Shown one piece after another: positions 23,927 through 64,000 of a stretch of 64,000 nt of DNA. The notes below the pieces were generated by a model. It made no database searches. It had not been told where the DNA came from and saw nothing but the letters and a program-made list of their open reading frames with translations. Position 1 is the stretch's first letter, and every line of letters begins with the position of its first letter. Source of the DNA: an uncultured Thermoplasmata archaeon (GTDB lineage: Archaea > Thermoplasmatota > Thermoplasmata > UBA10834); assembly GCA_963705355.1 (NCBI GenBank), contig OY970070.1, forward strand, positions 686,818-750,817. Reading direction: 5' to 3'. Both the position numbers and the translations under genes were made by a program.

Positions 23927-25423
23927 TCAGCTTTTGCCGAACTCGTTCACTATCGCACTGAGCCCCTTAGACTTGTCAGCGTCCAGCGGGACCGGCTTGT
24001 GCTCCTTCAAGATCTGCTCGATGCGCGCGTTCGCCGCCTCGAGCGAGTCCATGCCGCCTTTGTTCACGGCCTGCTCGAAGGTCTCCGTCCTCCACATTAG
24101 CTGCATGTAGTAGTCGCGCATGTGCGAGAGCGTGTGCTTCTGACCCAGATAGTTCCCGCCTATGCCGACCTTCTTGATCAGGTCCACTGCTAGCGTCTCA
24201 TCGCTGACCTCGAACCCGCTCATGGTCTTCAGGGTCATACCAGCTATCTCATGGTCGAACAGCAGCTGCTCGTACGACAGAAGTGTGGAGCCGTCCGGAA
24301 CCCCCAGGCCATTGATGACCTCTCCGCCGACAAGGATGCTCGCGGCGGTGGAGAGCTGGTTCTCTATCGATGCCTGCACGCCAGGGACCTTCGCGCTCGA
24401 GCCCATGCCTCCTGTGGAGTTCGGTATCTTGCAGAACTTGGCCATCTCGACCGCGGCAGCGCAAAGGATGGTGCTCTCGGGCGAGCCGCCTATGTACGCG
24501 CCCGACATCGGGTCCATGGCGGAAAGGACGGAGCCGTACATGACGGGCGAACCGGGTTCGTGAGCTTGCATCGCGCATGCGAGCGCGAGCGTCTCCGCGT
24601 GATTGACCACGAGGTCGCCAGCGATCGTTGCGGGACCGTTCATGCCCGCCTGGGCCATGCCGGTGATGTGCACTGGAACATGGTTCTCCGCCCAGACCAT
24701 CGCCGCCTCAGTGGTCGGACCTTCGAGCACGAGCGGCGAGACTGTGCAGACCATGGCGGAGATGTAGTGTCTATTCCTCAGCTCCTCGATGTCGCCCATG
24801 ATCTCGGCGGCCATCTTGACCTGGGCCCTGGCCTCGTCCGGGTTCGAAGTCGACTCGGTCAGAATGTGCTTCTGAGTGTTCTCCATCGCGACCCTAACGC
24901 CCTCGATCACGTGCATCTTTTCCGGCACATCGTGCGCGACAACCATCGGCTCATAGATGCTTACGTACGGAAGCCAATCGGATATGATCGCCGTCCTGCG
25001 AATGTCCTCCAGGACAGACCTTCTTTTGGTCCGCGTCTTGGCCTCCCACACAGCGACTCCGCAACCGTCGGTTGTGAAGTAGCTGTGGTTGCCGTCAAGG
25101 GGGAGATCGAACTCCTTGGTTCGACCCGCAAGGGTGTACGTCTTTGGGATCTTCTTCGAGAGCGAGTTCACGACACTTATAGGGAACTTGACGACCTCGG
25201 TCTTCTCGTCCACGATGGCCCCCGAGCCCTTCAGGGCGCTCCTGGCCGTCTTGCTGTGGACCTTGAGGCCGACGTCCTCCATCACCTCGAGGGTGGCCTC
25301 GTGGATCATCTTCTTGTCCGTCGTGCTCATCAGCTCGCACTTTGTCTTGACCTTGAAATTGTCTGCGAAGTTCTGGTTTGCCATTTTGTTCACTTCCTCC
25401 TGACACGCAGTCAGATATTGCAT
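23927..25423 (-). CDS. MttB-superfamily (trimethylamine/quaternary-amine:corrinoid) methyltransferase, no in-frame amber codon
   Basis: About 490-aa uninterrupted ORF of MttB-family length and layout (N-terminal IHEATLEVMEDVGLKV); probable ATG start at MANQ. Confidence 0.7.
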   Translation of the reverse strand: MQYLTACQEEVNKMANQNFADNFKVKTKCELMSTTDKKMIHEATLEVMEDVGLKVHSKTARSALKGSGAIVDEKTEVVKFPISVVNSLSKKIPKTYTLAGRTKEFDLPLDGNHSYFTTDGCGVAVWEAKTRTKRRSVLEDIRRTAIISDWLPYVSIYEPMVVAHDVPEKMHVIEGVRVAMENTQKHILTESTSNPDEARAQVKMAAEIMGDIEELRNRHYISAMVCTVSPLVLEGPTTEAAMVWAENHVPVHITGMAQAGMNGPATIAGDLVVNHAETLALACAMQAHEPGSPVMYGSVLSAMDPMSGAYIGGSPESTILCAAAVEMAKFCKIPNSTGGMGSSAKVPGVQASIENQLSTAASILVGGEVINGLGVPDGSTLLSYEQLLFDHEIAGMTLKTMSGFEVSDETLAVDLIKKVGIGGNYLGQKHTLSHMRDYYMQLMWRTETFEQAVNKGGMDSLEAANARIEQILKEHKPVPLDADKSKGLSAIVNEFGKS

Positions 25424-25486: not shown

Positions 25487-26953
25487 TCAGAAGCTACGTT
25501 TCTCCAGGGCATCAGCGCCGATGCTCTTCGAGTACTCCCGAATGATGCTGTCGATGCTCTTTCTGACCTCGGTCTCGAGAGGTTCGGGATGATGCGAACC
25601 AAGAAGCTCGACCATGCGCTCCTTGGCGCGCTTCTTCGCGTCCTTGGAGCCGGCCTCCATCCACCTTGTCCTGCTGGCCCTGTCCGAGATCCTGGGCGCC
25701 AAATGCTCCTTCCTGAAACGCAGCAAGGTGTCCTTCTGCTTCAAGTAGCTGCCCATCGGGCCTACCTTGTTGATGAGTTCGACTGAAAGTGTCTGATCGT
25801 TCACTTCGATGCCCTCGGAGAACCTGAGGGCATTGGCTGCGATCTCCTCGTCAATTACAAGCTGAACCGGCGAGAACGTGCTGAAAGCTTCAGTCGCGCC
25901 GATGAACAGGTCCGAGAAGTCGGCGCCCGCAGCGGCGGCTGCAAGAGCTGAGAAGGCCTTCTCATATGCGGCTTGCTCATCCACCGCCTTTGAGTCGCTC
26001 TGAACCCCCATGTTGCTGGGCAGGCCGTAGTACTTGGCGAGTTGCACCGCGCCCACGCCAATGAGAGAGAACTCGGGGGCACCAGTGGCGGACATCCCGC
26101 TCCTCATGTCGAGCGGGCAGGATACTGAGCCGTAGACGATCTTCGGGGATCTAGTGACCGTGCTCGCAATCACGATGGAACTGAGCACCTCGGCGTTTTG
26201 CTGCACGAGGGTCCCCGCGATGGAGGCTGGAGCGGTGCCGCCAGCAAGGGCCATGACTGTGACGAACACTGGCATATCCATTCGGCAATAGCCGAGCAGG
26301 GCCTCCAACATCGTATAATCGTGCCCAAGAGGGCTGATGGGGTCGACGTACCCGCAGAAAAGGGGCTTCTTGCGCAGGATCTCCCGGTCCCCATAGATGG
26401 CCTCTCCCAGCCTCATGGCCATCTCGACATCGTCCTTGCCCGTGCTCCCGCCGTATGTGCACTTTGACGAGTTGATCAGGCCAGCAGCCATCACCACGAT
26501 GCTCCTCTCGTAATCGCCGATGTCGCTGGCGTATGTCGGGACATAAGCGATCTGGACATTCTCAAGCGCATCCAAAAGCCTGCAGCAGAGAATGCCGTCG
26601 GCCAATTTAGGAACCCGCGCCTGGTCGGTTTCCGGATCGATGTAGTGAACGCACTCTGCGCCTGGCCCAATCTTAGTCCTGCCGTCGACGGCCTCGATCG
26701 AGTTCTTCTCGCTTCTGGCGTACCACTTGAAATTCTTCTTACAGCTCTTGACGGCCTCCATCACGACCGACTCGGGCATTTTGACGATCTTGGTCTTCCG
26801 GTCGACCTTGAGGCCTTTTCTCACTAGCAGGTCCAGCGTCTCCGAGGAGTTCACGAGCACTCCAGTCTTGCTGAGGACCTCGAGGGAAGCGCCATGGATG
26901 GCGTCCAATCCATCCTTCTCTATCACCTTCAGCATCTGTTTCCCAGAGACCAT
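25487..26953 (-). CDS. MttB-superfamily methyltransferase paralog, no in-frame amber codon
   Basis: 488-aa uninterrupted ORF with the same family layout (N-terminal IHGASLEVLSKTGVLV); tandem to the first paralog. Confidence 0.7.
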   Translation of the reverse strand: MVSGKQMLKVIEKDGLDAIHGASLEVLSKTGVLVNSSETLDLLVRKGLKVDRKTKIVKMPESVVMEAVKSCKKNFKWYARSEKNSIEAVDGRTKIGPGAECVHYIDPETDQARVPKLADGILCCRLLDALENVQIAYVPTYASDIGDYERSIVVMAAGLINSSKCTYGGSTGKDDVEMAMRLGEAIYGDREILRKKPLFCGYVDPISPLGHDYTMLEALLGYCRMDMPVFVTVMALAGGTAPASIAGTLVQQNAEVLSSIVIASTVTRSPKIVYGSVSCPLDMRSGMSATGAPEFSLIGVGAVQLAKYYGLPSNMGVQSDSKAVDEQAAYEKAFSALAAAAAGADFSDLFIGATEAFSTFSPVQLVIDEEIAANALRFSEGIEVNDQTLSVELINKVGPMGSYLKQKDTLLRFRKEHLAPRISDRASRTRWMEAGSKDAKKRAKERMVELLGSHHPEPLETEVRKSIDSIIREYSKSIGADALEKRSF

Positions 26954-27187
26954 ACGCCCCTCACTCCATTGCCGGAAGAGACTTCACTGCTGGTCGATAT
27001 CAGATGTGCTGGATTCCAGTGAATGGCTCTCACCAGACTTCCCGGCGGCGGGACAATAGACTTCATTCAGATAAAGAAATGCCAAACGACTTAAGAAAAG
27101 CTGCGCGAAGTGATGCATTCAGATTTCATCCGAGCCACACTGCAGGTGCAAAGAGTTTATCATGGGGCCCCGCATTGGCTGTTCTGG

Positions 27188-41759: not shown

Positions 41760-41917
41760 ATAAATGGGTTTCTCAAGGGCATAGAGAAAAGAGTTATCAA
41801 GGCGGCGACCATTACTCTTCCAGCTTAGGAGACAACCGGCCATATAGACCTACCTCGGGGGAAAGTGGGAGACTGCACGAACAAGAGCACTCTGAAGGAT
41901 CACGAGCTTGCAGAAGA

Positions 41918-43819: not shown

Positions 43820-43887
43820 ACGAGTGAATCACCCAGACACAGTCTGACCAGAGAATGCAGTGGACTCAGGGCGCAGGGTGGGGAGAA

Positions 43888-47374: not shown

Positions 47375-47377
47375 CCC

Positions 47378-47890: not shown

Positions 47891-48234
47891 TCCGGCAATT
47901 CAACAGTAAGATGCTCATTCCATTTATACCCTCGCCAGCTGGAGTATTTCTAAGTTGGCATTGTGCAATTTCCAGTCGAAGTTTACGAACATCTTTCATA
48001 AGAACGCGGCATAAAGTTGAAAACTTCTCAAATAACCTGGGCCTATCGTCAAACATTCGAAGGCAACAAAAACAGTAATGAAAAGGGCTCGAAAGAAGGG
48101 TTTTTTATGGCTAGAATACGATATTATCGAGAAGCGTCGCCTTCTTCTTTGGGTCTCGACATCGGGCATGCCTCGGCGATGTCACTGACCGGGCAGATTG
48201 TACATCGCTAGCCACATCTGGCCATCGGCAGACC

Positions 48235-50088
48235 TCATTTCAGGTTCGACAGTTTCTTGGCGATGTCACCCAACCCGACCTCTTCGAGCGCTTTCTTCGT
48301 GGGCCTGCCCTGATCGTCCCAGCCCCAGAGCCTGTAGTACTCGCTCAGCATCTTCTCGAATTCGGCCCGCGGAACCGCCTTGCCCTTGGTCTTGCCACTC
48401 GGCAACGGGTCCTTCTCCATGCGTTCGGGGAGATTGTCGTCCTTTCTCGAGAAGCCTTCCCTGGCATTGAATGCCTTCACGAGATTCCAGTTGCGTCTGC
48501 CGATCATGCGGAGGTACTGCTCATCTGCCTTGACGCCCGTGACGGCTGTGTAGTACTTCGCCATGTTCGGGAAGTTGACCGCGTAGAAGTCGCAGAAGAT
48601 GAAGCTCCACTTCACACTTGTCCTCGTCTGGTCCTCGACGCATATCGCGGCCTTGCCGTCAGTGCTCCAGGGATCGCCGCTGCCATACGCGTCGCTGGCC
48701 ACTGGCCAAGCCCTGTTATGGTCGGCACCGCGGTCTGATGTGGCATACGCAAGGGCCATTCCGATCGAGCCGCGTGGATCGTAGGCCGGGTACTCCGAAC
48801 CCTTGGATTCGACCACGAGCTTTTCAGCTCCCTTGCCTATCTTCTTCGCCGCCCGCTTGGAGCCGTCCGCGAGCACGTTGCCGATGTGCTGTCTGTGAGC
48901 GATCATCGCAGGCATCTTCACGTAGGCATCCTCGTTGCCGAACTTGAGGTCGAGACCGCCAGTGTCCTTCTTGGTCAGGATACCCTTCTCGTAAAGGTCC
49001 ATCGCCAGGGCAACGACGCTGCCGGCGGAGATCGTGTCCAGCCCGACCTTGTCACATTCCTCGGCGAACTTCACGATCGCCTCGATGTTCTTGATGCCGC
49101 AGTTCGAACCGCAGATGCCGATGGTCTCGTATTCAGGTCCTTCAGTCGCCGCTCCCTTCAACGCTCCCTTCGACACCCTGGTCCAGCTGCCGCACGCGAT
49201 GCCGCAGTCGAAACAGGCCTTCCTCCGCACGAGGACTCTGCTCTTCAGGGCGTCGGAGTTGATTCCCGCCGAACCTTCGAACTCTCCCGAGCTCCAGTTC
49301 CTCGTGGGCAGTATCGCGGCATTCTGGCTCATGTCGACGAGGATAGGTGTTCCATCGGTGATGGACCCGGCATGATCTGGGTTCTCGACCACATCCTTCA
49401 ACAGCATCTCCTTGGCCATTGGTATGAATCTATCGATGTCAGGCACTTCGAGGCCCATCGTTCCCCTGACAGCGACCGCTTTCAGGTTCTTGGAGCCGAA
49501 GACCGCACCGCCCCCGCCTCTACCAGCGTTCCTGGTGAGGTCGCTCGTCACGCACGCAATGAAGGACTGCCTCTCACCCGCGGGGCCGATGCATGCAACC
49601 CTTGCGTACTTCTCGCCTGTCTCCTTCCGGATCAGCGCTTCCGTCTCGTACGTGTCCTTGCCCCAGATGTTCTTCGCGTCCCGAATCTCCGCCTTGCCAT
49701 CTTTGATCCAGAGATAGACCGGCTTCTTCGCCTTGCCTTTGATGATGATTCCGTCGAAGCCCGCGTACTTGAGCTCAGGGCCGAAGTAGCCTCCCGCATA
49801 GCTGTCCAAGAACGTTCCTGTCAACGGCGACTTCGTGATGACGACATACCTACTGGTGACTGGGACCATGGTTCCCACGAAAGGCCCCGTCCAGATCATG
49901 AGTATGTTGTCAGGCGACAGCGGGTCCACGCCGGGCTTCAGCTCCTCGAAGAGATACCTCGCCCCGAGACCTTTCCCTCCAATGTGCAGCCTCGCCCATT
50001 CCCTGTTCAGTGGCTCAGTGGTTATCTTCTCGCTCGTCAGGTCGACTCTCAATACCTTGCCTGTGTAACCGTCCGCCATCTTGCTCAC
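48235..50088 (-). CDS. aor: aldehyde:ferredoxin oxidoreductase (tungsten/pterin AOR family)
   Basis: About 615-aa ORF with AOR-family N-terminus (GYTGKVLRVDLT); 4-nt overlap with an upstream ferredoxin gene. Confidence 0.85.
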   Translation of the reverse strand: MSKMADGYTGKVLRVDLTSEKITTEPLNREWARLHIGGKGLGARYLFEELKPGVDPLSPDNILMIWTGPFVGTMVPVTSRYVVITKSPLTGTFLDSYAGGYFGPELKYAGFDGIIIKGKAKKPVYLWIKDGKAEIRDAKNIWGKDTYETEALIRKETGEKYARVACIGPAGERQSFIACVTSDLTRNAGRGGGGAVFGSKNLKAVAVRGTMGLEVPDIDRFIPMAKEMLLKDVVENPDHAGSITDGTPILVDMSQNAAILPTRNWSSGEFEGSAGINSDALKSRVLVRRKACFDCGIACGSWTRVSKGALKGAATEGPEYETIGICGSNCGIKNIEAIVKFAEECDKVGLDTISAGSVVALAMDLYEKGILTKKDTGGLDLKFGNEDAYVKMPAMIAHRQHIGNVLADGSKRAAKKIGKGAEKLVVESKGSEYPAYDPRGSIGMALAYATSDRGADHNRAWPVASDAYGSGDPWSTDGKAAICVEDQTRTSVKWSFIFCDFYAVNFPNMAKYYTAVTGVKADEQYLRMIGRRNWNLVKAFNAREGFSRKDDNLPERMEKDPLPSGKTKGKAVPRAEFEKMLSEYYRLWGWDDQGRPTKKALEEVGLGDIAKKLSNLK

Positions 50089-51995: not shown

Positions 51996-54329
51996 ATGTC
52001 GACCGACAAGTTGTACACTCGGCGGGAGGTTCCTTTCGAGCTTGCCGAGATCGACCTTGAATCCGCGAGCGACGAGCAGCTCAAGGAGCTGAGCAGTGAA
52101 AGCGGCACAGCGTTGTCGCTCGAGGAGATGCATCGCATTCGCGATTTCTTCGCAGCGAAGGGCAGATGGCCGACTGATGTCGAGTTTCAGTCGCTCGGCC
52201 AGGCCTGGAGCGAGCACTGCTGCTACAAGAGCTCGAAGATCTTTCTGAAGCAGTACGTTTTCGGCATCAACACACCGCAGGTGATCGACAGGGGCGACGC
52301 AGGCGTCATGGAGTTCGACAAGGATCATGCATACGCACTCAGAATCGAGAGTCACAACCACCCGAGCGCTGTCGAGCCGTACGGCGGAGCAGCGACTGGA
52401 ATCGGTGGCATAATCAGGGATGTGCTTTGCATGGGCGCTCAGCCAATCGCGCTCGTCGACCCGCTTTTCTTCGGTCCTCTGGACTACCCGTTCAAGAAAC
52501 TCCCTGCGGGGATCAAGCACCCGAAATACCTGTTTGGAGGGATAGTGGCTGGCATACGCGATTACGGCAACAGAGTCGGACTGCCAACCGTCTCAGGTGG
52601 AGTCTGGTTCGATGAGAGCTATGTCGGCAATTGCCTTGTTAACGTAGGCTGCGTAGGCATCGCCGAGAAGAAGCAGCTGAGGAAAAACGCAGTGAAGGGA
52701 CCCGGCGACGTGCTGGTGCTCGTTGGGGGGCGCACAGGAAGAGACGGAATTCACGGGGTCACGTTCGCGTCTGCGGTGCTGACGAAGAAGAGTGAGACCG
52801 AGTCCAGAGGAGCTGTCCAGCTCGGAGACCCTATCATGAAAGAGCCTGTCATCCACGCATTGCTCGAGGCCGATTACAGGGGCCTTGTGAACGGCATGAA
52901 GGACCTCGGCGGAGGTGGACTCTCGTGCGTCGTGGGTGAGATCGCTCTTGCGGGAGGGTGCGGAGCGGAGGTAGACCTGACCAAGGTACCGCTAAAGGAG
53001 GAAGGGCTGGCTCCCTGGGAGATATGGGTTTCCGAATCACAAGAGCGAATGATGCTCTCAGTGTCGGCAAAGAACGTTGACGAGGTATTGCACATATTCA
53101 AGCTCTGGGACGTGCCGGCGACTCCAATTGGCAAGGTCATCCCCGAGAAGTCCGTTCGACTGTACTTCCAAGGCGAGAAGGTCTTCGACCTGGAGCTCGA
53201 GTTCCTCACGGCAGGACCTGTCTACTGCAGACCGTGCAGTGCGAGGAGATCGAAGGGCAGCAGGACGGAAAAGACCCCGAGTGTAAAGGATAGATACGAC
53301 AAGGAGCTGCTCAGATTGCTGTCATCACCGAACATATGCAACAAGGAGTGGGTGATCCGGCAGTACGATCATGAAGTGCGAGGCAACACAGTCATCAAGC
53401 CGCTTCAAGGGAAGCTCGGCCATTGGAGCCACGGCGACGCGGCAGTGCTGAAACCGGTCGAGGATTCGTTCAAAGGCCTCGCGATTGCGACTGCGTCGAA
53501 CCCGTTTGCGGTCGGCATCGACCCGTACCGTGGGGGCAAGACTTGCGTCGACGAAATGTGCAGGAACCTCGTCGCAGTCGGTGCCAGGCCGCACTCGTTC
53601 ACGAACTGCCTCAACTTCGGCAACCCGGAGAAGCCTGACAGGCTGTGGCTTTTCAGGGAGGCTGTCAGAGGCATGGGGGAGGTGGCGAAGGCGCTGAACG
53701 TCCCCACACCGTCTGGTAACGTGAGCTTCTACAACGAGGCGCCATCTGGTGCCGTTCTGCCGACGCCCACGCTGCTCGGCTGTGGTATAGTCCGGGACAT
53801 CAGGAAGTGCGTAACGTCTGACCTGAAGCGAGAGGGGAACACGCTAGCTGTCATAGGCGCGACCAAGCCTGAGATGGGCGCATCTGAGTACTACAGGATG
53901 AAGAAGGGATACTCCAGAAAAGTCCCTGATGTGGACATTCAAGCGCTCCGAGCGGGAATGGAGGTCGTCATCGGAGGAATCGAACGAGCCGCCATTGTCG
54001 CGTGCCACGACATATCAGACGGAGGACTGGCAGTAACACTTTCCGAGATGTGCATAGGCGGGGATGTCGGGGCCGAGATCGACCTGACCAAGATGGAGAG
54101 GCTGCGATCTGATGTCCGCCTGTTCTCCGAGAGCAACAGCAGATGGGTCGTGGAGATCAGAAAGGGAAAGGAGAAGCAGCTGCCAAAGGACAGGAAGACG
54201 AAGGTGGCCAGGCTCGGAACGGTCGGTGGCGACTCCCTCATGATATCATCTGACAGGAGACTGCTTGACGTCGATGTCCCCAGACTCTCACAAAGCTTCA
54301 ACTCGACTCTCTGGAGGCTGGTAGGATGA
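51996..54329 (+). CDS. purL: phosphoribosylformylglycinamidine synthase subunit PurL
   Basis: 777-aa ORF with PurL/AIR-synthase-related repeat layout. Confidence 0.9.
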   Translation: MSTDKLYTRREVPFELAEIDLESASDEQLKELSSESGTALSLEEMHRIRDFFAAKGRWPTDVEFQSLGQAWSEHCCYKSSKIFLKQYVFGINTPQVIDRGDAGVMEFDKDHAYALRIESHNHPSAVEPYGGAATGIGGIIRDVLCMGAQPIALVDPLFFGPLDYPFKKLPAGIKHPKYLFGGIVAGIRDYGNRVGLPTVSGGVWFDESYVGNCLVNVGCVGIAEKKQLRKNAVKGPGDVLVLVGGRTGRDGIHGVTFASAVLTKKSETESRGAVQLGDPIMKEPVIHALLEADYRGLVNGMKDLGGGGLSCVVGEIALAGGCGAEVDLTKVPLKEEGLAPWEIWVSESQERMMLSVSAKNVDEVLHIFKLWDVPATPIGKVIPEKSVRLYFQGEKVFDLELEFLTAGPVYCRPCSARRSKGSRTEKTPSVKDRYDKELLRLLSSPNICNKEWVIRQYDHEVRGNTVIKPLQGKLGHWSHGDAAVLKPVEDSFKGLAIATASNPFAVGIDPYRGGKTCVDEMCRNLVAVGARPHSFTNCLNFGNPEKPDRLWLFREAVRGMGEVAKALNVPTPSGNVSFYNEAPSGAVLPTPTLLGCGIVRDIRKCVTSDLKREGNTLAVIGATKPEMGASEYYRMKKGYSRKVPDVDIQALRAGMEVVIGGIERAAIVACHDISDGGLAVTLSEMCIGGDVGAEIDLTKMERLRSDVRLFSESNSRWVVEIRKGKEKQLPKDRKTKVARLGTVGGDSLMISSDRRLLDVDVPRLSQSFNSTLWRLVG

Positions 54330-55156
54330 AGGCGAGCCAGGTCAAAGTGTGTGTGCTCAGGATAGAGGGCACCAACTGCGAGGAGGAGATGTATCTCTCG
54401 TTCCGGCGCCTGGGGGCGAGGCCGGAGAAGGTCCACCTCAAGCAGCTCACGGGGACGGACGTCTCCCACGAGGAGAAGAGGTCCCTCTCGGACTACCACA
54501 TACTCGCGCTCCCCGGAGGCTTCTCTGCAGGGGATTACGTCCGTGCGGGCGCCATATTCGCCGCAAGGATGAAGAGCAGGCTCTCGAAGGACCTAGTGGA
54601 TTTCATCAAGGCAGGCAAGCCCGTGCTGGGCGTGTGCAATGGGTTCCAGATACTCGTCGAAGCTGGCCTGCTCCCTGCAATGTCTGGCATAATGACGGAG
54701 TTCCCTGAGGCGGTCCTTGGCACGAACGACTCGGCTAGGTTCGAGTGCAGGCCTACGCTCCTGAAGAAGGTCAACAGGGGAAGCTGCGCATTCACCTCGA
54801 TGATCTCTCCTGACAAGATCTCCCTGATTCCATCCGCCCATGCAGAGGGCAAGCTGATGTTCCCGCTGGAAAGGACAGAAGAGATTATCAAGGAGCTCGA
54901 GGAGAACGACCAGATCGTGTTCAAGTACGTCGATCCCGAAGGCAACCTGGCAGGGTATCCATGGTGCCCGAACGGTGCGGTAGAGAACATCGCGGGCATC
55001 TGCAACAGGGAGGGCAACGTCTTCGGCCTCATGCCCCACCCCGAGAGGGTGTTCTTCAAGTTCACTCATCCTGACTGGACTAGGGAACCCGATGGCCCGG
55101 GGGACGGGAGGGCAGTGTTCGAATCCGTCCTGCACTACGTCACGAGAAAGATGTGA
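54326..55156 (+). CDS. purQ: phosphoribosylformylglycinamidine synthase subunit PurQ (glutaminase)
   Basis: Class-I amidotransferase catalytic Cys motif (GVCNGFQ); 4-nt overlap with purL. Confidence 0.85.
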   Translation: MKASQVKVCVLRIEGTNCEEEMYLSFRRLGARPEKVHLKQLTGTDVSHEEKRSLSDYHILALPGGFSAGDYVRAGAIFAARMKSRLSKDLVDFIKAGKPVLGVCNGFQILVEAGLLPAMSGIMTEFPEAVLGTNDSARFECRPTLLKKVNRGSCAFTSMISPDKISLIPSAHAEGKLMFPLERTEEIIKELEENDQIVFKYVDPEGNLAGYPWCPNGAVENIAGICNREGNVFGLMPHPERVFFKFTHPDWTREPDGPGDGRAVFESVLHYVTRKM

Positions 55157-55162
55157 AGGGGG

Positions 55163-55543
55163 ATGAGGAAGCCCTCTTCAAATGAACAAAGAACATCGGA
55201 AGTGCGCAAGAATCAAATTACTGGAATCGCAAGCGAGAGATTACGGTCGATCGAAAAAAAGATGAACAAGGTTGTCGAACTTGCGGTCGAGGAAGAGGCA
55301 TCAGTCATTGAGCTCGGCATTTCGCCACCTCGCATCAACCGTCCAAGCGCGGAGCCGGAAATGCGACTGCGCGAACTGCGGACTGAGCTGGCGAGGGTCA
55401 TCGAACGGTTTGAGTTCATGGTGCCAGAACTTCCAAGGAAACAGAAGAGAATGCACAGAAGACTCAAGTCCCTTCTCGATTCGTCAGAGACTCTCGAAAG
55501 GAAGTGGCTCGAATACCAGGCAATCGTCAGAGGGAGACTATGA
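55163..55543 (+). CDS. hypothetical coiled-coil protein
   Basis: Charged helical ORF with no motif; convergent overlap with ribK 3' end. Confidence 0.3.
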   Translation: MRKPSSNEQRTSEVRKNQITGIASERLRSIEKKMNKVVELAVEEEASVIELGISPPRINRPSAEPEMRLRELRTELARVIERFEFMVPELPRKQKRMHRRLKSLLDSSETLERKWLEYQAIVRGRL

Positions 55544-56183
55544 GCTCCACCTGGTCTCCGTCCTTCAACCCGAGCGAGCGTCTCAGGTGATACTTGCAGA
55601 TGACTTCGATGATGTCCGTGTGGTGAGACCTCACAGGAAGAACGACCGCGCACTCCATGTTGTGGATCGTCGCGAGAAAGCACTTCACATCCCCGAAGGT
55701 CCTGCCCTCTTTCTCGAAACCCTTGATCAGAATGCCCTCGGATTTCCTCAGGATGTCGAGCTTGGGCAACTCAGGGTCGGCGAGCCTAAGGTTCAACGTC
55801 CCCTCGAAAGGCTTGAACCACAGCTTCTTCTGGAATTGATCGGCGTAGGCCTCCTGGTTGACATAGTACTGACCCTCTCCGAGACCAGATGTGACTGTGC
55901 CTATGATGACGAGGTGGTCCTTCATCTCGAATATGCGCTGGTAGTCCGAGTACTCCTTTCTGAGAAGGTCAAAACCCTTATCGGTCAGCTTGATCCGCTG
56001 CCTCCTGGCACCCAGATCCCGCTCAATCAGAGCATCGCCGAGAAGCTCCAGTATTTTCTTGGAGGCGGACTGTTGGCTGATTTCGAGGACATTTCCGAGC
56101 TCCCTCGACGAAATCGCGATATAATCATGCACTCCACCCATGAGCGCTATGTGTTTGAGTGTCGCGATTTGCTTCTCATGCAT
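55527..56183 (-). CDS. ribK: CTP-dependent riboflavin kinase (archaeal type) with N-terminal HTH
   Basis: N-terminal wHTH-like segment followed by GTVTSGLGEG and EGTLN motifs. Confidence 0.7.
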   Translation of the reverse strand: MHEKQIATLKHIALMGGVHDYIAISSRELGNVLEISQQSASKKILELLGDALIERDLGARRQRIKLTDKGFDLLRKEYSDYQRIFEMKDHLVIIGTVTSGLGEGQYYVNQEAYADQFQKKLWFKPFEGTLNLRLADPELPKLDILRKSEGILIKGFEKEGRTFGDVKCFLATIHNMECAVVLPVRSHHTDIIEVICKYHLRRSLGLKDGDQVELIVSL

Positions 56184-56232
56184 GGTACGGCTCGGATGAG
56201 CTAGCCATCATAATAGCTTTTCGTCGTCGAGA

Positions 56233-56595
56233 TTACTCGTAATCGTCGGCCACTAGATAACGCTCGGCACGCAACCTAACAACTGGAACTCGCCTTTCCT
56301 TGAGTCGGCCTATTAGCTCTCTGTCGTTGGTCACGACGGCAGCAGACCTTTGCACGGCCAAATCGATAACCGCGTCATCGCCAGCGAGCTCGGTCTCCAC
56401 TATGTGATACTTGCGCGCCAATGCGAGAGCGGCTTTTCCGTTCCTGTCCGTCGTGTTCGCCAGCTCGCCAAGGACAGAGCTGGGCACGAAGACCGGAATG
56501 TCGCCAAACAGGCGCCTGAGCTCATGGTCCAGATTGAGTTTGAATTGAAAGGGCATCAGAAGAGCGTTCGCATCGAGCACAATTGCCAGAGGCAA
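56233..56595 (-). CDS. PIN-domain protein
   Basis: 120 aa with N-terminal IVLDANAL and conserved acidic residues in PIN-like spacing. Confidence 0.5.
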   Translation of the reverse strand: MPLAIVLDANALLMPFQFKLNLDHELRRLFGDIPVFVPSSVLGELANTTDRNGKAALALARKYHIVETELAGDDAVIDLAVQRSAAVVTNDRELIGRLKERRVPVVRLRAERYLVADDYE

Positions 56596-56607
56596 GGCAT
56601 CACACGC

Positions 56608-57840
56608 CTACTGAACGACGCCGTAGCCGATCAGGCGCCATTTGCCGGCTATGCGTCTCGATATGGCTATCCTCTGGCTCTTCTCCACACAGACTGGTAT
56701 CTTTAGGTCGACCTCCGCAGAATCGGATCGGCCGCTCGTGACCACCCCAACGGTGGTTGCAGTGCCAACGCTCAGCATCAAGGGCTCATTCGTCTTGAGG
56801 TTGTCCACGGCAAGCTCAGATGAGATTCCGACGACCCGTTTCATGAGTTCGGTCTTGAACGTCAGTTCACTGAGCACGGGTGGGAGAGTCCCAGGAACTC
56901 CGGCTATCCTGCCGACCAGTGAATCCGACTTGGTGGATGACGGGTCAAGGCCGGTTCCGATGGCAATCAATCCGCCAGGACCAGCGACTTCGAGCGAGAG
57001 TGCGCCAGCGTAGAGCGACCTCACCTTGGTCACGATGCTCTCCCAGCTCGACTTACTTCCGACCTCGACTTTCCTGCCGGGCAGGATCTCCACCTCGTCA
57101 CCGATCTTAAGCTTCCCCTGGGTCATCGAGCCGCCAATGACCCCGCCTTTGAGATTCTCGAGCTTCGTGCCGGGGACATTGACATCGAAAGACCTCGCGA
57201 TGTACATCCTCGCTGGCTTCGACCTGTCCCACTTTGGTGTCGGGATATTCTTCTCGATAGCCTCGATGAGCATGTCTATGTTGACATCGTGGTGGGCCGA
57301 TATTGGTATGATCGGGGCCTTCTCTGCGATCGTCCCCTTGATGAAGTCCTGGATCTCGGCGTAGTTCTCCCTGGCCTCCTCCTTGGTGACGATGTCGATC
57401 TTGTTCTGAACGACAATTATCTTGTCCACTCCGATGATGGACAAGGCCATCAAATGCTCCCTCGTCTGCGGCTGCGGACATTTCTCGTTCGCTGCGACGA
57501 GTAGGAGAGAGCCGTTCATTATCGCCGCGCCCGAGAGCATCGTGGCCATCAGAGTCTCGTGGCCTGGAGCATCGACGAATGAGACTGATCTGAGGAGCTC
57601 GCACTCGCCCTTGCAGTTGGGGCACGTTGGCTGGTTCGTGTAGCATTCTGGCGCTTCGCAGTTCTTGCACTTGTAGAACGCGACATCCGCGTACCCGAGG
57701 CGGATCGAGATGCCTCTCTTGACTTCCTCAGAGTGCCTGTCGGTCCATTCGCCCGTCAGAGCTTTCGTCAGCATGGTCTTGCCATGGTCCACGTGGCCGA
57801 TCATACCGATGTTTGTCTCTGGCTGGCTCGGAACCTTCAT
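56608..57840 (-). CDS. eif2g: translation initiation factor 2 subunit gamma
   Basis: G-domain motifs [12 protein letters not shown] and zinc-ribbon Cys cluster ([19 protein letters not shown]). Confidence 0.9.
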
Positions 57841-58259
57841 TACTGCTTCTTCTCCTCTTTCTTCAAAAGCTCAGAAGCCGGCTTCATCCCGTGCTGCGTG
57901 ATCTTCATGTTGATCTGCAGTGTGTCGGGCGCGATCGTGTTGCCCCTGACATTCTTCCTTCGCCTCAGCCCGCTCTTCTTGGAGTTGAAGCCGATGCTCT
58001 TGGAGATCAGAAGCTTCTTCCTTCTCGGGCCGGGCAGATCCTTCCTCATGGGGAACCCATCCTTGTCGCTCCCACCAGTGATTTCCAGTTTGAAACCAGG
58101 CAGGCCGACGAATATGCCGTCCACGACGTCGCCTATCTTCTTGCCGATGAGCGAGTTGGCGTGATGACCTGAGACTGGCGTCTGATACGACTTCCCATCT
58201 TTTGGATCGCCTATCACGGCCCTGAACTCTGCCAAACAATCCACTCCGGTGTGTGGCAC
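57840..58259 (-). CDS. rps6e: 30S ribosomal protein S6e
   Basis: S6e-like sequence ([10 protein letters not shown]... [17 protein letters not shown]); exact start uncertain. Confidence 0.85.
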
Positions 58260-58395
58260 GCCCTAATGCGAAAGGAGTTATATAGGTTTCGGACCTGGAA
58301 TGGGAATGCTGGTATACCGTTTTGGAGCGGTGCGAATAGCGTACGTCGACATGAATATTACCGGCCAAACTATTACAAATAGCTCGAGGTCAAAG

Positions 58396-58716
58396 ATGAA
58401 GAAGATCACGAGAGAAGTACTGAAGAACATGATGGACACCAACGTCGATTTCGTCCTCATAGATGCGCGCGGGCATGAGGCCTATGACAAGGAGCACTTG
58501 CCCGGTGCGGTGTCAATCCCGTCGGATCATCTGGGGGAGCATCTGCTCAAGAACTACAAGAAGGACATAACTATCGTCACATACTGTTCTAGCTTTGAAT
58601 GCACCGCAAGCACGATAGCAGCAGAGAAGCTCGAGAAGTACGGATTCAAGAAGATTCTCGAGTTCAAAGGCGGTCTAGCAGACTGGAAAGTCGCGGGGTA
58701 CCCGACTGAGAAGTGA
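58396..58716 (+). CDS. rhodanese-domain protein
   Basis: Rhodanese active-site loop context (IVTYCSSFECTAS); ATG at 58396 preceded by GAGGT. Confidence 0.6.
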   Translation: MKKITREVLKNMMDTNVDFVLIDARGHEAYDKEHLPGAVSIPSDHLGEHLLKNYKKDITIVTYCSSFECTASTIAAEKLEKYGFKKILEFKGGLADWKVAGYPTEK

Positions 58717-58717
58717 C

Positions 58718-60484
58718 TCATCTTCCCCAGAACGGTTTCTCCTTTCGCTTGATTGCCGCGAGCTGCTCAAAGGCCTCAATCTCATCCTGTTTCAAAGTGT
58801 AGCTCGCAAGCTCGTGCGCGTGTCTTTCGGGAATATCGACCAGCAGCACGTCCTCCACATCGATCTGCCTTCCCACGGTCGCATCATCGATTGAAATCGC
58901 GACCTCGGCTCCTGCGATGGCCTCCTTGAGCGACTCCTCCCCACTGCGTATGCTTTTAATCCTGCCGACTTCCTTTCCGTCTTCTCTGACCAGACCTTGG
59001 CCAGGGCGGATCCTGCCGGCCAGAACTCTGACGCCCACAATCGCAGGTTTGCTGACTCGGAAGACGTGGTCTCTCATTATCACGATCTTGCCTGGGAAGA
59101 CTATCTCCAGCCTCTGCTCCACCTCGACCTCCTTCTTGCGCTCCTCGCACCAGGTCCGGTAGTCTTCGAGCAACCGATACATGACATCGTTCTCGAAGAT
59201 CTTGATGCCAGATGAGAGGGCCTCGGACTTCGCATCTTCGTTTATCCCGACATTGAACGCGAAGATGGCTCTGTGCATGGGATCCGCAAAATGAGAGGCC
59301 TCGACGATGTCCTTGCGGATCACGTTGCCGATGTCTATCTTCCTGATGGGAAGATTGCTCTGCTTTGCCTCGAAGGCGAATGCCTCCAGTGACCCGATCG
59401 CATCTCCCCGGACAATGATTCCTTCCTCGGCGAGCTCGACCTTGATCTGGCTCTCCTTGCGAACCTCGTCCTTCAGCTCGTCGAGATCTCCACTGACCAC
59501 CCTGATGGTGCCCCCGGCCATGGCGTTCTCGAGGTTCTGAGCGACTACCCGAATCCCTGCAGCCGCGGAAACCTCCTTGACCCGATCGAACCTCAGGGTT
59601 GGATCGCGAATCTCATCCAAGGGCCTCGGCCTCTGCAATCCCTTTATCTTGGTCACAATCGGTTCGTCCTTGACCGATGAGACCACTATCTGGTCTCCTA
59701 CCTTCACAGTTCCGCGGTAGATGATCGAGTCGATTGCAGTGCCTATCCCCCTCTCTTCCTTTACTTCCAGGACCGTGCCCTCGCCCGGCCCTTCCTCCGT
59801 CCGGAGTTCTTCTCCAAGAAATCTCTGTGCCAACCCGACGAGCATGAGGAGCAAGTCTGGCAGTCCCTCACCATACTTCCCGCTTATCGGAACGATAGCG
59901 ACCGTTTTTGTGAAGTCGGTAATCTTGTCAAAGCGGTCTGCGCTAAGACCGCTCTTGTCGAATATTCTGCCCGAGAGACTGTATATCTTCTCCTCCAGCT
60001 CCGCAGCGACCCGCGGGTCCTGTGCCGCAATAGCATCGCCGAAGGTCTTCCATTCTTCGCGCCTCCAGCCAGGTATGAGATCTATCTTGTTGGCCGCGAT
60101 CAAGAACGGCGTGCGGAACTTCTTCAGTATGTTTATCGACTCGATGGTCTGCGGCTTCAGACCCTCGTTTATGTCAATGACGAGTACTGCGAGGTCTGCA
60201 AGAGCGCCGCCCCTGGTCCTCAGAGTGACGAACGAATAGTGCCCCGGCGTATCTATGAAGAGCAGCCCCGGAACGGAGAACTTGCGGTCGCCTATCAGAG
60301 GCCCGCATAGCTTGTATATCGTCTCGATTGGCACATCGGTGGCGCCGATGTGCTGAGTGATTCCTCCCGCCTCCCGGCTGACGACCTCAGTGCCCCTGAT
60401 CTTGTCTAGAATAGTCGACTTCCCGTGGTCGACGTGCCCCATGACCGAGACTATAGGGTGCCGGATGGCCATGGAAATCACCAA
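58718..60484 (-). CDS. infB: translation initiation factor aIF5B (IF-2 homolog)
   Basis: G-domain motifs (VMGHVDHGKST, DTPGH, NKID) and 588-aa length. Confidence 0.9.
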   Translation of the reverse strand: MVISMAIRHPIVSVMGHVDHGKSTILDKIRGTEVVSREAGGITQHIGATDVPIETIYKLCGPLIGDRKFSVPGLLFIDTPGHYSFVTLRTRGGALADLAVLVIDINEGLKPQTIESINILKKFRTPFLIAANKIDLIPGWRREEWKTFGDAIAAQDPRVAAELEEKIYSLSGRIFDKSGLSADRFDKITDFTKTVAIVPISGKYGEGLPDLLLMLVGLAQRFLGEELRTEEGPGEGTVLEVKEERGIGTAIDSIIYRGTVKVGDQIVVSSVKDEPIVTKIKGLQRPRPLDEIRDPTLRFDRVKEVSAAAGIRVVAQNLENAMAGGTIRVVSGDLDELKDEVRKESQIKVELAEEGIIVRGDAIGSLEAFAFEAKQSNLPIRKIDIGNVIRKDIVEASHFADPMHRAIFAFNVGINEDAKSEALSSGIKIFENDVMYRLLEDYRTWCEERKKEVEVEQRLEIVFPGKIVIMRDHVFRVSKPAIVGVRVLAGRIRPGQGLVREDGKEVGRIKSIRSGEESLKEAIAGAEVAISIDDATVGRQIDVEDVLLVDIPERHAHELASYTLKQDEIEAFEQLAAIKRKEKPFWGR

Positions 60485-60722
60485 CGGACACGCTTTATAT
60501 CAAGTTAACTGGCATGGACAGACACATGGTCTTTGCGATGAACAAACTCGCCTGGACCGGATGAGGCCTTCGTTCACAACCGCTTCCAGCGCAAGCGACA
60601 CCTTGCCGCGAAGCCGAGGATGATGGCCTTTCCAAGAGAAGCTCGCTCTCCAATCGAGCGACTGGCAAACCGTCACGAAATCCCCCAGAAGTGGGAAGCC
60701 GGATGAAGGGGTCTCGTGGAGA

Positions 60723-61178
60723 TTACTTCTCGAAGAGAGAGGCCTCGTCTATCTTCTCGTACTTCTGAATCTCGTAGTCGTTGAAGAACAACTTGATCTC
60801 GCGCTTGGCGCTCTCGGAGGAGTCGGACCCGTGCACGATGTTCCTGCCCGTGACCTGAGATAAATCGCCTCGGATGGTCCCCGGAGCGGCGTCCTGGGGG
60901 TTTGTCTTGCCCATCATCGCCCTCAGGGCGGCGATGGCGTTCTCGCCCTCGAGCACCATGCAAACGACAGGCCCGGAGGTTATGTAGGTCAGCAGGGGGT
61001 CGTAGAACTCCTTCCCCTTGTGCTCCTCATAGTGCCTTTCTGCCAACTCCCTCGGTATCTTCATCATCTTCATCGCGCAGACCTTGAGGCCTCTGTCCTC
61101 GAACCTCTGGACGATCCTGCCGACGAGCCCCCTCTGGACTCCATCGGGCTTCACCATCGCGAAGGTCTTCTCGATCAT
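60723..61178 (-). CDS. ndk: nucleoside diphosphate kinase
   Basis: NDK motifs ([20 protein letters not shown] catalytic His). Confidence 0.9.
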
Positions 61179-61654
61179 GCTTTGCCACCATCCGACTGCT
61201 TTTCCTTGTGTTCGGTCTTTGGCTTCGGCTTCTCCGCTTTGGCTTCCTCAGTCTTCTTTGCCGGCTCGGCCTTCTTCGCAGGGACCTCCTTGGCGGGTTC
61301 CTTCGGAGCCGGCTTCTTCTCTTCTGCCTTCGGCTTACCCTCCTTGGGAGCTCGCTTGGCCTCCTCCTTCTTTGGCTCCGCTTTCTTCTCCGCCATCGCC
61401 TCTTCTTTCTTGACCTTGCGGGCCTTCGTGGGCTCAGGTGCGACCTCTGGCGCCCCCCTCATCCTAATCTGTTTCTCGCGCGCATAGTACTGAGTCCAGG
61501 TAGTCCTCCTCGGGACGCGCCCGAGCACGATCATGTTCTTGAAGCACTTGGAAGTGCAGAAGTTGTAGACTACCCCATCCTTCTTGATGTACATCCTGCC
61601 CGTCCCCGGCTCGATCTCGTCACCGCAGAACGTGCACACTCTTCGCTCGACCAT
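61175..61654 (-). CDS. rpl24e: 50S ribosomal protein L24e with long Lys/Ala/Glu/Pro-rich C-terminal extension
   Basis: N-terminal L24e zinc-binding core ([13 protein letters not shown]...CTSKC) followed by about 95 aa of low-complexity K/A/E/P repeats. Confidence 0.85.
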
Positions 61655-61680
61655 TGAACATCACCTCTGATGCAGGAGGC

Positions 61681-61893
61681 TCAGCGCACGCTGAGCTTCC
61701 TCGCCTCTCTCGAGGTCTCCTTCAGCATCAGCACATCTCCGACCCTGATGGGACCCATGACGTTGCGGGTGATGATACGGCCCTTGTCCCGGCCGTCCAT
61801 GACCCTCACCTTCACCTGAGTCGCCTCTCCGGTCATGCCGGTCCTGCCGATGACCTCGACGACGGTTGATGGTATGCTCTCATCTTCTGGCAT
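61681..61893 (-). CDS. rps28e: 30S ribosomal protein S28e
   Basis: 70-aa ORF with S28e-like core ([21 protein letters not shown]...[11 protein letters not shown]). Confidence 0.9.
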
Positions 61894-61902
61894 TCAGGCC
61901 AC

Positions 61903-62316
61903 CTACTTCTTCAGCGCCTTCAGCTTGTCGGCTAGCTCGTCGAGAGCCGGCTTGCCCTTCGCGGCATCGAGTATGGCGACCGCAGCGGTCGGCTTCTCGA
62001 GCCCACAGGCGTTGCCAAGCTCGGCCTTGCTCGGGACATAGGCGTAAGGCACGTTCCGCTCCTCGCACAGAGAGGGCATGTGCATCAGTATCTCGGGCGG
62101 TGAGACGTCCTCTGCCATGACGACCATCAGAGTCTCGCCCCTTTCGACGAGCTTTGTCACCTCGTTCGTACCCTTGCGTATCTTTCCGCCGTCTCTTGCG
62201 AGCTCGACTAGCTCGTAGGTCTTGTCAGCTAGGTCCTTCGGCATCTCGAACTTCACATACACTGGCTTCGCCAAGTTGATACCTCCTTCAGGTGCGTTAG
62301 CACCGTCATCATTCAT
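61903..62316 (-). CDS. rpl7ae: 50S ribosomal protein L7Ae (kink-turn RNA-binding protein)
   Basis: L7Ae family sequence (KIRKGTNEVTKLVERGE...YVPSKAELG); start may be downstream of the annotated ATG. Confidence 0.9.
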   Translation of the reverse strand: MNDDGANAPEGGINLAKPVYVKFEMPKDLADKTYELVELARDGGKIRKGTNEVTKLVERGETLMVVMAEDVSPPEILMHMPSLCEERNVPYAYVPSKAELGNACGLEKPTAAVAILDAAKGKPALDELADKLKALKK

Positions 62317-62359
62317 CGGCCCTTTTGATGAAAAGAGCAGAATGAGTAAATGGTCTTGG

Positions 62360-62366
62360 TATAAAA
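62360..62366. promoter_or_regulatory. TATA box (TATAAAA), strand assignment ambiguous
   Basis: Isolated AT-rich heptamer in GC-rich spacer about 47 nt upstream of the rpl7ae ATG (minus) and also oriented for a plus-strand transcript toward 62855. Confidence 0.35.
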
Positions 62367-62854
62367 TGGTTGCCGGAGTTACACTGTGCGATGCGGATTC
62401 TCACGACGTACAAATACGTGGAAGAGCGCTCGACGGCTGATCCAAATGCCAGGGAATGCAGGTTCCCGCATTACAGCCGAGCCCCCGTACGCTCCTTCGC
62501 TACAGGGGCTCAACTTTCGAAGGTTCGAAAACGAGGGCGATCACGAAGGGATAGCTGGGGTCATGAATCGCAGTTGGGAGGCGGACCGCGTTGATGCCAC
62601 AGTTGCTGCAACCGACATAGGAAGAACATACGCCCCCTAGGAGACCTTCAATCCCAAATAGGAAGGACAATCCGTCAGGCGCGCTCGTGCTCTACCAGAG
62701 CTTGGGATTTAGGAAAGATAGGGAGTTCATCTTCTACAGGAAACCGCTCTAATGCATCATCGAAGGACCCATTCCCGAGCATTCAGTCCGATGGAAAAGT
62801 CAATCGTGCGAGAAGCTATATCGCCATTCATCATCAGGTCACTGGGTGATTGCC

Positions 62855-64000
62855 ATGTCTGGGCCGCTGGTGCACTTCCAGCCGATTGGAAGCAAGGTCG
62901 AAGCAAGGGAGGACAGCAGTCTTCTGGATCTTGCAAGGGATGCAGGAGTGGCGATCGAGTCCATCTGCAGTTCCCTTGGCAAATGTGGCAAATGCCGCGT
63001 CGTCGTGAGATCCGGGGGGAAAGCGCTATCGGGCTTGACGGAAAGCGAGAGGCGTCTGCTCGACAGGCGAGAATTGAGAGATGGTGTGAGACTGGCATGT
63101 CAGGCGAAGTTGGCCTTCCCCGCCAACATCACGGTTGAGGTGCCCGAGGAGAGCAGGAGAGGACATCACAGGCTCTTGTCCTCGGGCGTTGAGAGGAAGG
63201 TCGAGCTCAGACCAGCGGTGCAGAAATTCGTATTGAAAATCCCCCCGGCAACACTGAGAGACCTTCGCGCGGATGATGAGAGGCTCCTGCAAGAGCTGAA
63301 GAAGAAGGTCAAGAGGCAGTTTCTGGTGTCTCCTGGCGTGCATAGGCACCTACCAGAAGCGCTCAGGAAAAGCTCGTGGGTCACCACTGTAACACTCTTC
63401 AGGAACGAGGAGGTCATTCGCGCGGAACCGGGCGATACCTCCTCCCGACTGTTCGGCATCGCGGCGGACATTGGCACCACGAAGGTTGTCGCATATCTTC
63501 TAGATCTGAACACTGGCGAGTTGCTCGGGACGGAGAGTATGCCCAACCCGCAGATATCCTATGGTGAGGACCTGATGTCAAGGATCGCCTACACCAACAA
63601 GAATCCCAAAGGGTTGGATGAGCTTCAGCAATCAATCGCTCACGGGCTCAACACCCTCATCTTCAAGTTGTGCACGGACAAGGGACTCACACCAGGGGAC
63701 ATCCTTGAGGTCATGGTCGTCGGAAACACCGCAATGCACCACATCTTCTTCGGCATACCCACGACCCATCTGGCAGCCGCACCATACGCCCCGGTTGTCA
63801 AGACCTCCCTGTCGGTGAATCCTCCTCATGTCGGACTCAACACGTATCCGTTCGGGAAGGTCTCGTCGCTTCCTAACATAGCAGGGTTCGTTGGCGCAGA
63901 TGCGGTCTCCGATCTCCTGTCCAGCGGACTGTACGACGACAATGATGTCGGCATGATGATAGACATCGGGACGAACACCGAGATAATCGCGGGCAATAAG
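62855..64000 (+). CDS. RACo/RamA-like corrinoid-protein reductive activase (2Fe-2S ferredoxin domain + ASKHA/DUF4445 ATPase domain), 3'-truncated by window edge
   Basis: Hand-translated from ATG at 62855; open to the window end. N-terminal CSSLGKCGKC...C ferredoxin-like Cys pattern, then ASKHA-type start GIAADIGTTKVVAYLLDL. Not in the ORF track because no stop lies in the window. Confidence 0.65.
   Translation, partial: MSGPLVHFQPIGSKVEAREDSSLLDLARDAGVAIESICSSLGKCGKCRVVVRSGGKALSGLTESERRLLDRRELRDGVRLACQAKLAFPANITVEVPEESRRGHHRLLSSGVERKVELRPAVQKFVLKIPPATLRDLRADDERLLQELKKKVKRQFLVSPGVHRHLPEALRKSSWVTTVTLFRNEEVIRAEPGDTSSRLFGIAADIGTTKVVAYLLDLNTGELLGTESMPNPQISYGEDLMSRIAYTNKNPKGLDELQQSIAHGLNTLIFKLCTDKGLTPGDILEVMVVGNTAMHHIFFGIPTTHLAAAPYAPVVKTSLSVNPPHVGLNTYPFGKVSSLPNIAGFVGADAVSDLLSSGLYDDNDVGMMIDIGTNTEIIAGNK

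Follow-up and report, generated by a model that had tools for sequence, protein, structure and literature searches.

We describe here a gene at the 3' edge of a stretch of DNA from an uncultured Thermoplasmata archaeon (NCBI GenBank assembly GCA_963705355.1, contig OY970070.1, positions 686,818 to 750,817); the whole stretch of 64,000 nucleotides that was analysed is called the window, and coordinates are counted from its first letter. To judge from its domains and motifs, the gene almost certainly encodes a corrinoid reductive activase of the RACo type, as far as function can be named at the level of the family.

Reading frame and start of the activase gene

A first-pass annotation of the window had proposed that an untracked partial gene lies at this edge, and 382 stop-free codons were indeed found on the plus strand, from ATG 62855 to position 64000, where the frame leaves the window. 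The gene is missing from the list of open reading frames (ORFs) because ORFs running off an end are omitted there. The window thus holds the first ~60% of the gene (codons 1-382 of about 630).

The start at ATG 62855 is well supported, because several indications agree: the closest in-frame stop on its 5' side is the TAA at 62750, the sole alternative start candidate upstream is GTG 62846, a Shine-Dalgarno-like GGTGAT precedes the ATG, the N-termini of homologues align with residue 1 of the protein so started, and the JGI gene call in a conspecific contig (see below) begins at the identical residue, MSGPL. The GGTGAT presumably pairs with the anti-Shine-Dalgarno sequence of archaeal 16S rRNA. 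The features of the gene are as follows.

62845..62850, plus strand: Shine-Dalgarno-like GGTGAT, 4 nt before ATG 62855, read from the sequence
62855..64000, plus strand: 5' part of a predicted RACo-type (RACE/COG3894) corrinoid reductive activase gene, from the open frame, Pfam, NCBIfam and PDB matches and the conspecific 630-aa gene
62879..63112, plus strand: plant-type [2Fe-2S] ferredoxin domain, residues 9-86 (Pfam Fer2 PF00111, 42.6 bits against a cut-off of 21, E 5.7e-11)
63191..63442, plus strand: RACo linker region, residues 113-196 (Pfam PF17650, 66.3 bits against a cut-off of 26.2, E 2.2e-18)
63452..63937, plus strand: RACo middle region, residues 200-361 (Pfam PF17651, Raco_middle, 185.1 bits against a cut-off of 26.8, E 9.7e-55)
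63962..63982, plus strand: ASKHA phosphate-2 motif D370-IGTNTE, after which nothing further is recognisable up to the window edge

Domains, cluster ligands and ATPase motifs

The profile search for ferredoxin and ASKHA domains suggested by the first-pass annotation gave three matches in the window, Fer2, RACo_linker and Raco_middle, all exceeding their Pfam gathering scores, and a fourth, RACo_C_ter, in the conspecific protein. The ferredoxin-like cysteine pattern that had been noticed by eye, CSSLGKCGKC followed by a further Cys, falls within the Fer2 match and reads C38-x5-C44-x2-C47 (codons 62966-62995), with C82 as the fourth cysteine; the individual codons are 62966-62968 (C38), 62984-62986 (C44), 62993-62995 (C47) and 63098-63100 (C82). 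All four cysteines are invariant across 8 clade members and align with the cluster cysteines of CGGAGTCGKC...LACQ in the RACo structure 3ZYY.

The string that had been taken for the start of an ASKHA-type ATPase, GIAADIGTTKVVAYLLDL, is present as residues 201-218 of the activase and contains the phosphate-1 motif D205-IGTTK (63467-63484), which opens the Raco_middle region and aligns with DIGTTT of 3ZYY. The phosphate-2 motif aligns likewise with DIGTNGE of 3ZYY, and both motifs are invariant among clade members. The Raco_middle match spans model positions 1-162 of 163; from the positions of the two motifs, this region would correspond to the first ASKHA lobe.

A PDB search returned RACo (3ZYY) as the best match (E 5.7e-60, 35.5% identity), with residues 6-382 collinear with residues 6-389 of the structure, and ferredoxins next. 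The domain order is therefore that of RACo itself, as expected from the earlier claim that this is the architecture of an ATP-dependent corrinoid reductive activator. Membership in an unrelated sugar-kinase- or Hsp70-like ASKHA family was ruled out by these RACo-specific Pfam and PDB matches: Pfam gave no match to kinase, Hsp70 or actin families at E<=0.01, and only Fer2 and the RACo families were matched.

Placement among known corrinoid activators

Family features were drawn from the literature (PMC7317905, PMC6739815, PMC2933860). Activators of corrinoid proteins carry either one [2Fe-2S] or two [4Fe-4S] clusters (PMC6739815), and ATP-dependent Co(II)-to-Co(I) reduction of corrinoid proteins has been followed in assays (PMC8604678, PMC6855144). 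The label 'RACo/RamA-like' given at first has to be split accordingly: the N-terminal [2Fe-2S] domain makes the activase RACo-type, and with RamA only the ASKHA core is common.

Membership in the RamA family was rejected on three grounds: the N-terminal Fer2 domain, the lack of a CxxCxxC motif anywhere in the 630 residues of the conspecific protein, and the score of that full-length protein against the RamA model TIGR04270 (111.5 bits, cut-off 500). The alignment to this model covers positions 2-410 and leaves positions 411-534 unmatched; the window fragment by itself scores 31.2 bits. The [4Fe-4S] clusters of RamA reportedly sit in its C-terminal domain (Ferguson et al. 2009). RamA and RamM of Methanosarcina and Methanolobus, which share the ASKHA core and use ATP to return methylamine or methanol corrinoid proteins from Co(II) to Co(I), have two [4Fe-4S] clusters (PMC6739815), whereas the window protein has an N-terminal [2Fe-2S] domain.

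The best structural match is RACo of Carboxydothermus hydrogenoformans (3ZYY; 4C1N in complex with the corrinoid iron-sulfur protein, CoFeSP). With it and its orthologue AcsV the activase has in common the [2Fe-2S] pattern C-x5-C-x2-C...C and the order of linker, middle and ASKHA regions. It differs from them in its archaeal (Thermoplasmata) host and in its surroundings, which are ribosomal-protein and translation-factor genes rather than an acs/cdh cluster. Against the NCBIfam AcsV model (NF040756) the window fragment aligns over positions 2-392 of 632 with 252 bits, and the full-length conspecific protein over positions 2-632 with 504.4 bits; an 86% identical homologue (P0001) scores 510.6 bits. 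With a cut-off of 800 bits, neither full-length score places the protein in the curated AcsV family. Because the subfamily falls below both the AcsV and the RamA cut-offs, its public label is just 'ASKHA domain-containing protein' or 'DUF4445'. We regard the activase as an unremarkable addition to a known enzyme family, from a subfamily that is uncharacterised.

Two further activators bear comparison. The activating enzyme (AE) of the Acetobacterium dehalogenans O-demethylases is a monomer with a [2Fe-2S] cluster that uses ATP to activate the small corrinoid proteins of methyltransferase systems (PMC6739815). Some archaeal homologues of the window activase lie in comparable clusters, with B12-binding, URO-D-like and MtrH-like genes (L028, below); the window has no O-demethylase-type genes. 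RamQ of Eubacterium limosum is proposed as a functional analogue of the window activase, likened to it by gene arrangement and not by sequence. RamQ activates MtqC, which serves the MttB paralogs MtpB, MtcB and MtyB in quaternary-amine:tetrahydrofolate systems, and the genes lie in separate clusters (PMC8604678). The window resembles this arrangement in that two divergent non-pyrrolysine MttB paralogs also lie far from the activase; the host here is an archaeon.

Intactness of the gene

Exact-match look-up of the neighbouring L7Ae protein led to two metagenome contigs from JGI, L072 (129.6 kb) and L073 (80 kb). Both are conspecific with the window: they align without gaps over 12,001 bp to its positions 52000-64000, with a nucleotide identity of 99.2%. 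They hold a complete activase gene of 630 aa, the conspecific counterpart of the full gene that the first-pass annotation had advised recovering. The window part is identical to it at 379 of 382 residues, and the 3 substitutions are all conservative. RACo_C_ter (PF14574), the C-terminal part that completes the ATPase, is carried by the conspecific protein; in the window copy it lies beyond position 64000. The early stop or frameshift beyond the window that would have spoken against an activase gene does not appear in the conspecific gene.

The same architecture is general among homologues, of which the database yielded 4598 at E<=1e-20 (best E 1e-217). Among the 120 matches listed, lengths range over 599-665 aa, RACo_C_ter/DUF4445 is present in every one, and 119 have the full four-domain architecture.

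The window copy might nonetheless be no more than a relic, whether a pseudogene or a truncated gene, as is the GNAT gene immediately 5' of it:

62446..62752, plus strand: GNAT acetyltransferase pseudogene, degraded, separating L7Ae from the activase; it is on the 5' flank of the activase and not part of it

This remnant is clearly degraded. By tblastn, 62446-62655 corresponds to residues 1-70 of the 340-aa GNAT protein of locus L001 (47% identity, interrupted by an in-frame TAG), and 62666-62749, in another frame, to residues 313-340 (75% identity), followed by the stop TAA 62750; about 240 codons are deleted. The GNAT gene is intact in L001, L003, L005, L007, L012 and L070, and has been lost also in L002 and L006. 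Besides this decaying neighbour, the relic explanation can point to the 3' 248 codons of the activase gene that lie outside the window. It is contradicted by the 382 visible codons without a stop, by the conservation of every catalytic and ligand residue, and by the mere 3 conservative substitutions relative to an intact conspecific gene within 12 kb free of indels. We consider a relic extremely improbable and rejected it on the evidence of the conspecific contigs; a truncation or frameshift of the window copy is, on the same comparison, very unlikely.

Genomic neighbourhood in the Thermoplasmata

Relatives of the activase come from uncultured Thermoplasmata, among them Slate River MAG (metagenome-assembled genome) OBJ2 (85% identical), RBG_16_62_10 (68%) and UBA9653 (61%), the latter two of which are placed in order UBA10834 / Ca. 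Gimiplasmatales. To judge from this one gene and its synteny, the window probably derives from a non-methanogenic member of that order as well. Neighbourhoods were counted for 70 fetched loci, 26 from the Thermoplasmata and 44 from outside the clade.

Within the clade, the surroundings of the activase gene are housekeeping ones, with L7Ae on one side and, on the other, saccharopine-dehydrogenase-like (SDH-like) genes, a major facilitator superfamily (MFS) gene and a pyruvate, phosphate dikinase (PPDK) gene. RACo, one to three SDH-like paralogs and the MFS gene follow one another on the same strand at 21 of the 26 Thermoplasmata loci (58-87% RACo identity), with PPDK then on the opposite strand. 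The SDH-like block was seen directly 3' of the activase in L001, L002, L003, L012, L069, L070, L072 and others. The first-pass annotation had recommended a look downstream for corrinoid-protein genes; none is there, and the conspecific and related contigs carry SDH-like, MFS, PPDK and GT4 genes in that place.

So regular an order raises the question whether the activase, the SDH-like genes and the MFS gene form a lineage-specific module, part of an undescribed corrinoid-dependent pathway. Besides the shared strand and order, it could be said for such a module that no curated equivalog accommodates the SDH-like proteins (they reach 200 bits with the carboxynorspermidine synthase model, cut-off 800) and that an MFS gene lies 3' of RACo in the Bathyarchaeia locus L022 as well. 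The L022 MFS protein, though, has no tblastn similarity to that of the clade, and an SDH-like gene is near RACo at none of the 44 loci outside it. The same block also holds ribosomal-protein and translation-factor genes and PPDK, and therefore resembles an inherited gene order more than an operon. Gaps of 100-205 bp separate the genes, and in L072 a TTAAATA box follows the stop codon of RACo and precedes the ATG of the SDH-like gene. Given a single syntenic clade, large gaps and a TATA-like box, we consider a functional module of RACo with the SDH-like genes improbable.

Neighbourhoods of distant homologues

Outside the clade, the activase is typically found beside corrinoid proteins and their methyltransferases. 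The nearest sampled non-Thermoplasmata homologue, in Bathyarchaeia L022 (45% identity), lies in a row of genes ordered RACo, MFS, corrinoid protein, MttB. Among gammaproteobacterial loci 12 kb or longer, a B12-binding gene lies within 10 kb of RACo in 21 of 21 cases and MttB in 20 of 21; in Ca. Pseudothioglobus (L042, NZ_CP159805, 6341-13490) the cassette comprises a corrinoid protein, a pterin-binding methyltransferase, RACo and MttB (724 bits). This compact cassette of corrinoid-protein, pterin-methyltransferase, RACo and MttB genes is kept across about 20 further SUP05/Thioglobus loci of marine gammaproteobacteria.

Archaeal loci show related arrangements. A B12-binding gene stands directly upstream of RACo at all six Asgard loci, the Archaeoglobales locus L028 groups RACo with B12-binding, URO-D-like and MtrH-like genes, and an MtrH-like gene adjoins RACo at a Nitrososphaerales locus. 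A corrinoid-protein or methyltransferase gene neighbours RACo in L031 too, and no such gene does so in the window. At two Bathyarchaeia loci RACo stands alone, as it does in the window.

MttB paralogs of the window

Two members of the MttB superfamily are encoded in tandem in the window:

23927..25423, minus strand: MttB-superfamily paralog A, non-pyrrolysine, 498 aa (Pfam MTTB, 277 bits)
25487..26953, minus strand: MttB-superfamily paralog B, non-pyrrolysine, 488 aa (Pfam MTTB, 278.5 bits)

They are 31% identical to each other. Paralog A scores 411.8 bits against TIGR02369, the equivalog model of trimethylamine methyltransferase (cut-off 525), uninterrupted over model positions 3-467, and paralog B 418.5 bits, so that neither reaches the cut-off; their best PDB matches are, respectively, a trimethylamine methyltransferase (7XCL, E 1.9e-67) and a glycine betaine methyltransferase (9YCE, E 5.8e-70). 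Since both reading frames are uninterrupted, these are non-pyrrolysine members of the superfamily.

A corrinoid protein for these methyltransferases was sought in the window by similarity as well. A tblastn search with a MetH B12-domain seed found no match in the window, although its positive controls did match, in 34 of 70 fetched loci. With four corrinoid proteins verified by Pfam, neither tblastn nor a hidden Markov model made from them yielded a match in the window better than E about 1.

The pair is flanked by a gene for a GPN-loop GTPase (22860-23633) and one for a metallo-beta-lactamase-fold protein (27110-27961). About 1.8 kb from it lies a 412-aa ORF (28741-29979, plus strand) with a Cas12f1-like TNB domain, TnpB-like and typical of IS200/IS605-type elements.

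Other genes of the window

Archaeal genes on the minus strand of the window, identified by Pfam, are L7Ae, S28e, L24e, NDK, aIF5B and aIF2-gamma. The window also has PurL/PurQ, a cluster of aldehyde:ferredoxin oxidoreductase (AFOR), ferredoxin and aminotransferase genes, an Opp transporter, and glycine-cleavage P subunits. The Opp-type peptide ABC transporter (41747-45818, plus strand) adjoins the genes for a class-III aminotransferase, a 4Fe-4S ferredoxin and AFOR (45866-50088, minus strand), a block suggestive of a life by fermenting peptides and amino acids and of a supply of reduced ferredoxin. Also consistent with such a lifestyle are histidine ammonia-lyase (4477-6024) and the P subunits of glycine cleavage (30845-33639).

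Two adjoining ORFs on the plus strand encode CARF/Csa3-like proteins, the first (21512-22216) with Cas_APE2256, HFX_2341_N and MarR/HTH domains, the second (22213-22863) with HFX_2341_N and Csa3_N only; no cas genes were found among the long ORFs of the window. A 1485-aa protein (10758-15215, plus strand) consists of tetratricopeptide repeats along nearly its entire length.

Proposed partner protein and mechanism

We hold, with moderate confidence, that small corrinoid proteins linked to MttB are what the activase acts on, perhaps together with other partners. These would be corrinoid proteins of the small MtxC type, one or a few, with genes in other parts of the genome, and they may be methylated by several non-pyrrolysine MttB paralogs, two of which are in the window. 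Such an organisation would resemble that of E. limosum, in which a single RamQ and a single MtqC suffice for several MttB paralogs in separate clusters. In studies of MAGs from UBA10834 and RBG-16, non-methanogenic Thermoplasmata orders neighbouring the Methanomassiliicoccales, non-pyrrolysine MttB genes and some MtbC/MttC genes are reported; their role is called unclear and the activase is not discussed.

The mechanism we propose takes its steps from RACE-type ATPases (PMC7317905, PMC6739815). The corrinoid cofactor cycles between Co(I) and methyl-Co(III), and occasional oxidation to Co(II) inactivates it (PMC7317905, PMC6739815). The activase would bind its corrinoid protein in this inactive Co(II) state; a low-potential donor would give one electron to the flexibly tethered N-terminal [2Fe-2S] domain; and ATP binding and hydrolysis in the ASKHA domain would drive the uphill reduction of Co(II) to Co(I), with roughly one ATP spent on each electron. 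A sensible candidate for the donor is reduced ferredoxin, because the window encodes AFOR and a 4Fe-4S ferredoxin.

Several observations weigh against assigning the activase to MttB-linked corrinoid proteins. The MttB pair is 36 kb from the activase and on the opposite strand, and in the 64-kb window no gene for a corrinoid protein or for a pterin-binding, MtrH-like or URO-D-like methyltransferase was detected by Pfam among some 50 long ORFs. In the clade, 25 of the 26 loci have no B12-binding gene in the fetched flanks; the only locus with such a gene, L030, has a corrinoid protein and MttB 8.3 kb from RACo. With MttB 36 kb off and no corrinoid gene nearby in the clade (L030 aside), there is therefore no operon-level linkage here. 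To these points must be added that the window's own 3' 40% of the activase gene lies outside it, that the subfamily is uncharacterised, that the best match among curated models is AcsV, an activator of CoFeSP, albeit below cut-off, and that carbon monoxide dehydrogenase/acetyl-CoA synthase (CODH/ACS) has been reported for order UBA10834 / Ca. Gimiplasmatales.

The last two of these points define the main competitor, namely that the activase is the equivalent of RACo/AcsV in the strict sense and reactivates, as its main partner, the CoFeSP (AcsCD or CdhDE) of the Wood-Ljungdahl pathway. Its top structural and curated matches are, after all, C. hydrogenoformans RACo and the AcsV model, the latter over its whole length, and MAGs of UBA10834 / Ca. 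Gimiplasmatales, the order of its closest named relatives, are reported with CODH/ACS and Wood-Ljungdahl genes. However, 504 bits is well under the AcsV cut-off, and in the literature CODH/ACS is found in only part of the order (genus COMBO-56-21). There is no CODH/ACS gene among the genes of the window, and none was called in the conspecific and related contigs within about 8-10 kb of the activase gene, no systematic scan of all fetched loci for CdhD/E having been made. The homologues examined outside the clade, moreover, adjoin small corrinoid proteins or methyltransferases of the MttB, MtrH or URO-D type, or stand alone. We think CoFeSP the less likely main partner, though one to be taken seriously because CODH/ACS is reported in part of the order and AcsV is the best curated match.

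As to the identity of the gene, the first-pass annotation was right. The link that it had drawn to the MttB paralogs has its support in the neighbourhoods of distant homologues and in the example of RamQ. The genes themselves, far apart on different strands, show no genomic linkage; we suggest that the connection between activase and MttB is plausible but circumstantial.

Implications for corrinoid-dependent metabolism

The importance of the finding is modest, and nothing in it will surprise specialists. An annotation gap has been mended, in that the activase gene was missed solely since its frame leaves the window. Should the improbable module of activase, SDH-like and MFS genes prove real, it would imply import of a methylated lysine-like or polyamine-like compound, its demethylation by non-pyrrolysine MttB, and processing of the product by the SDH-like enzymes, a corrinoid-dependent catabolic route new to the literature. 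In a milder version, the activase could be an unrecognised fourth component with which non-methanogenic relatives of the Methanomassiliicoccales run complete quaternary-amine methyl-transfer systems. The conservation of an intact RACo-type activase across the clade fits a working corrinoid-dependent methyl transfer in these archaea, whether in methylated-amine methylotrophy, in the Wood-Ljungdahl pathway, or in both.

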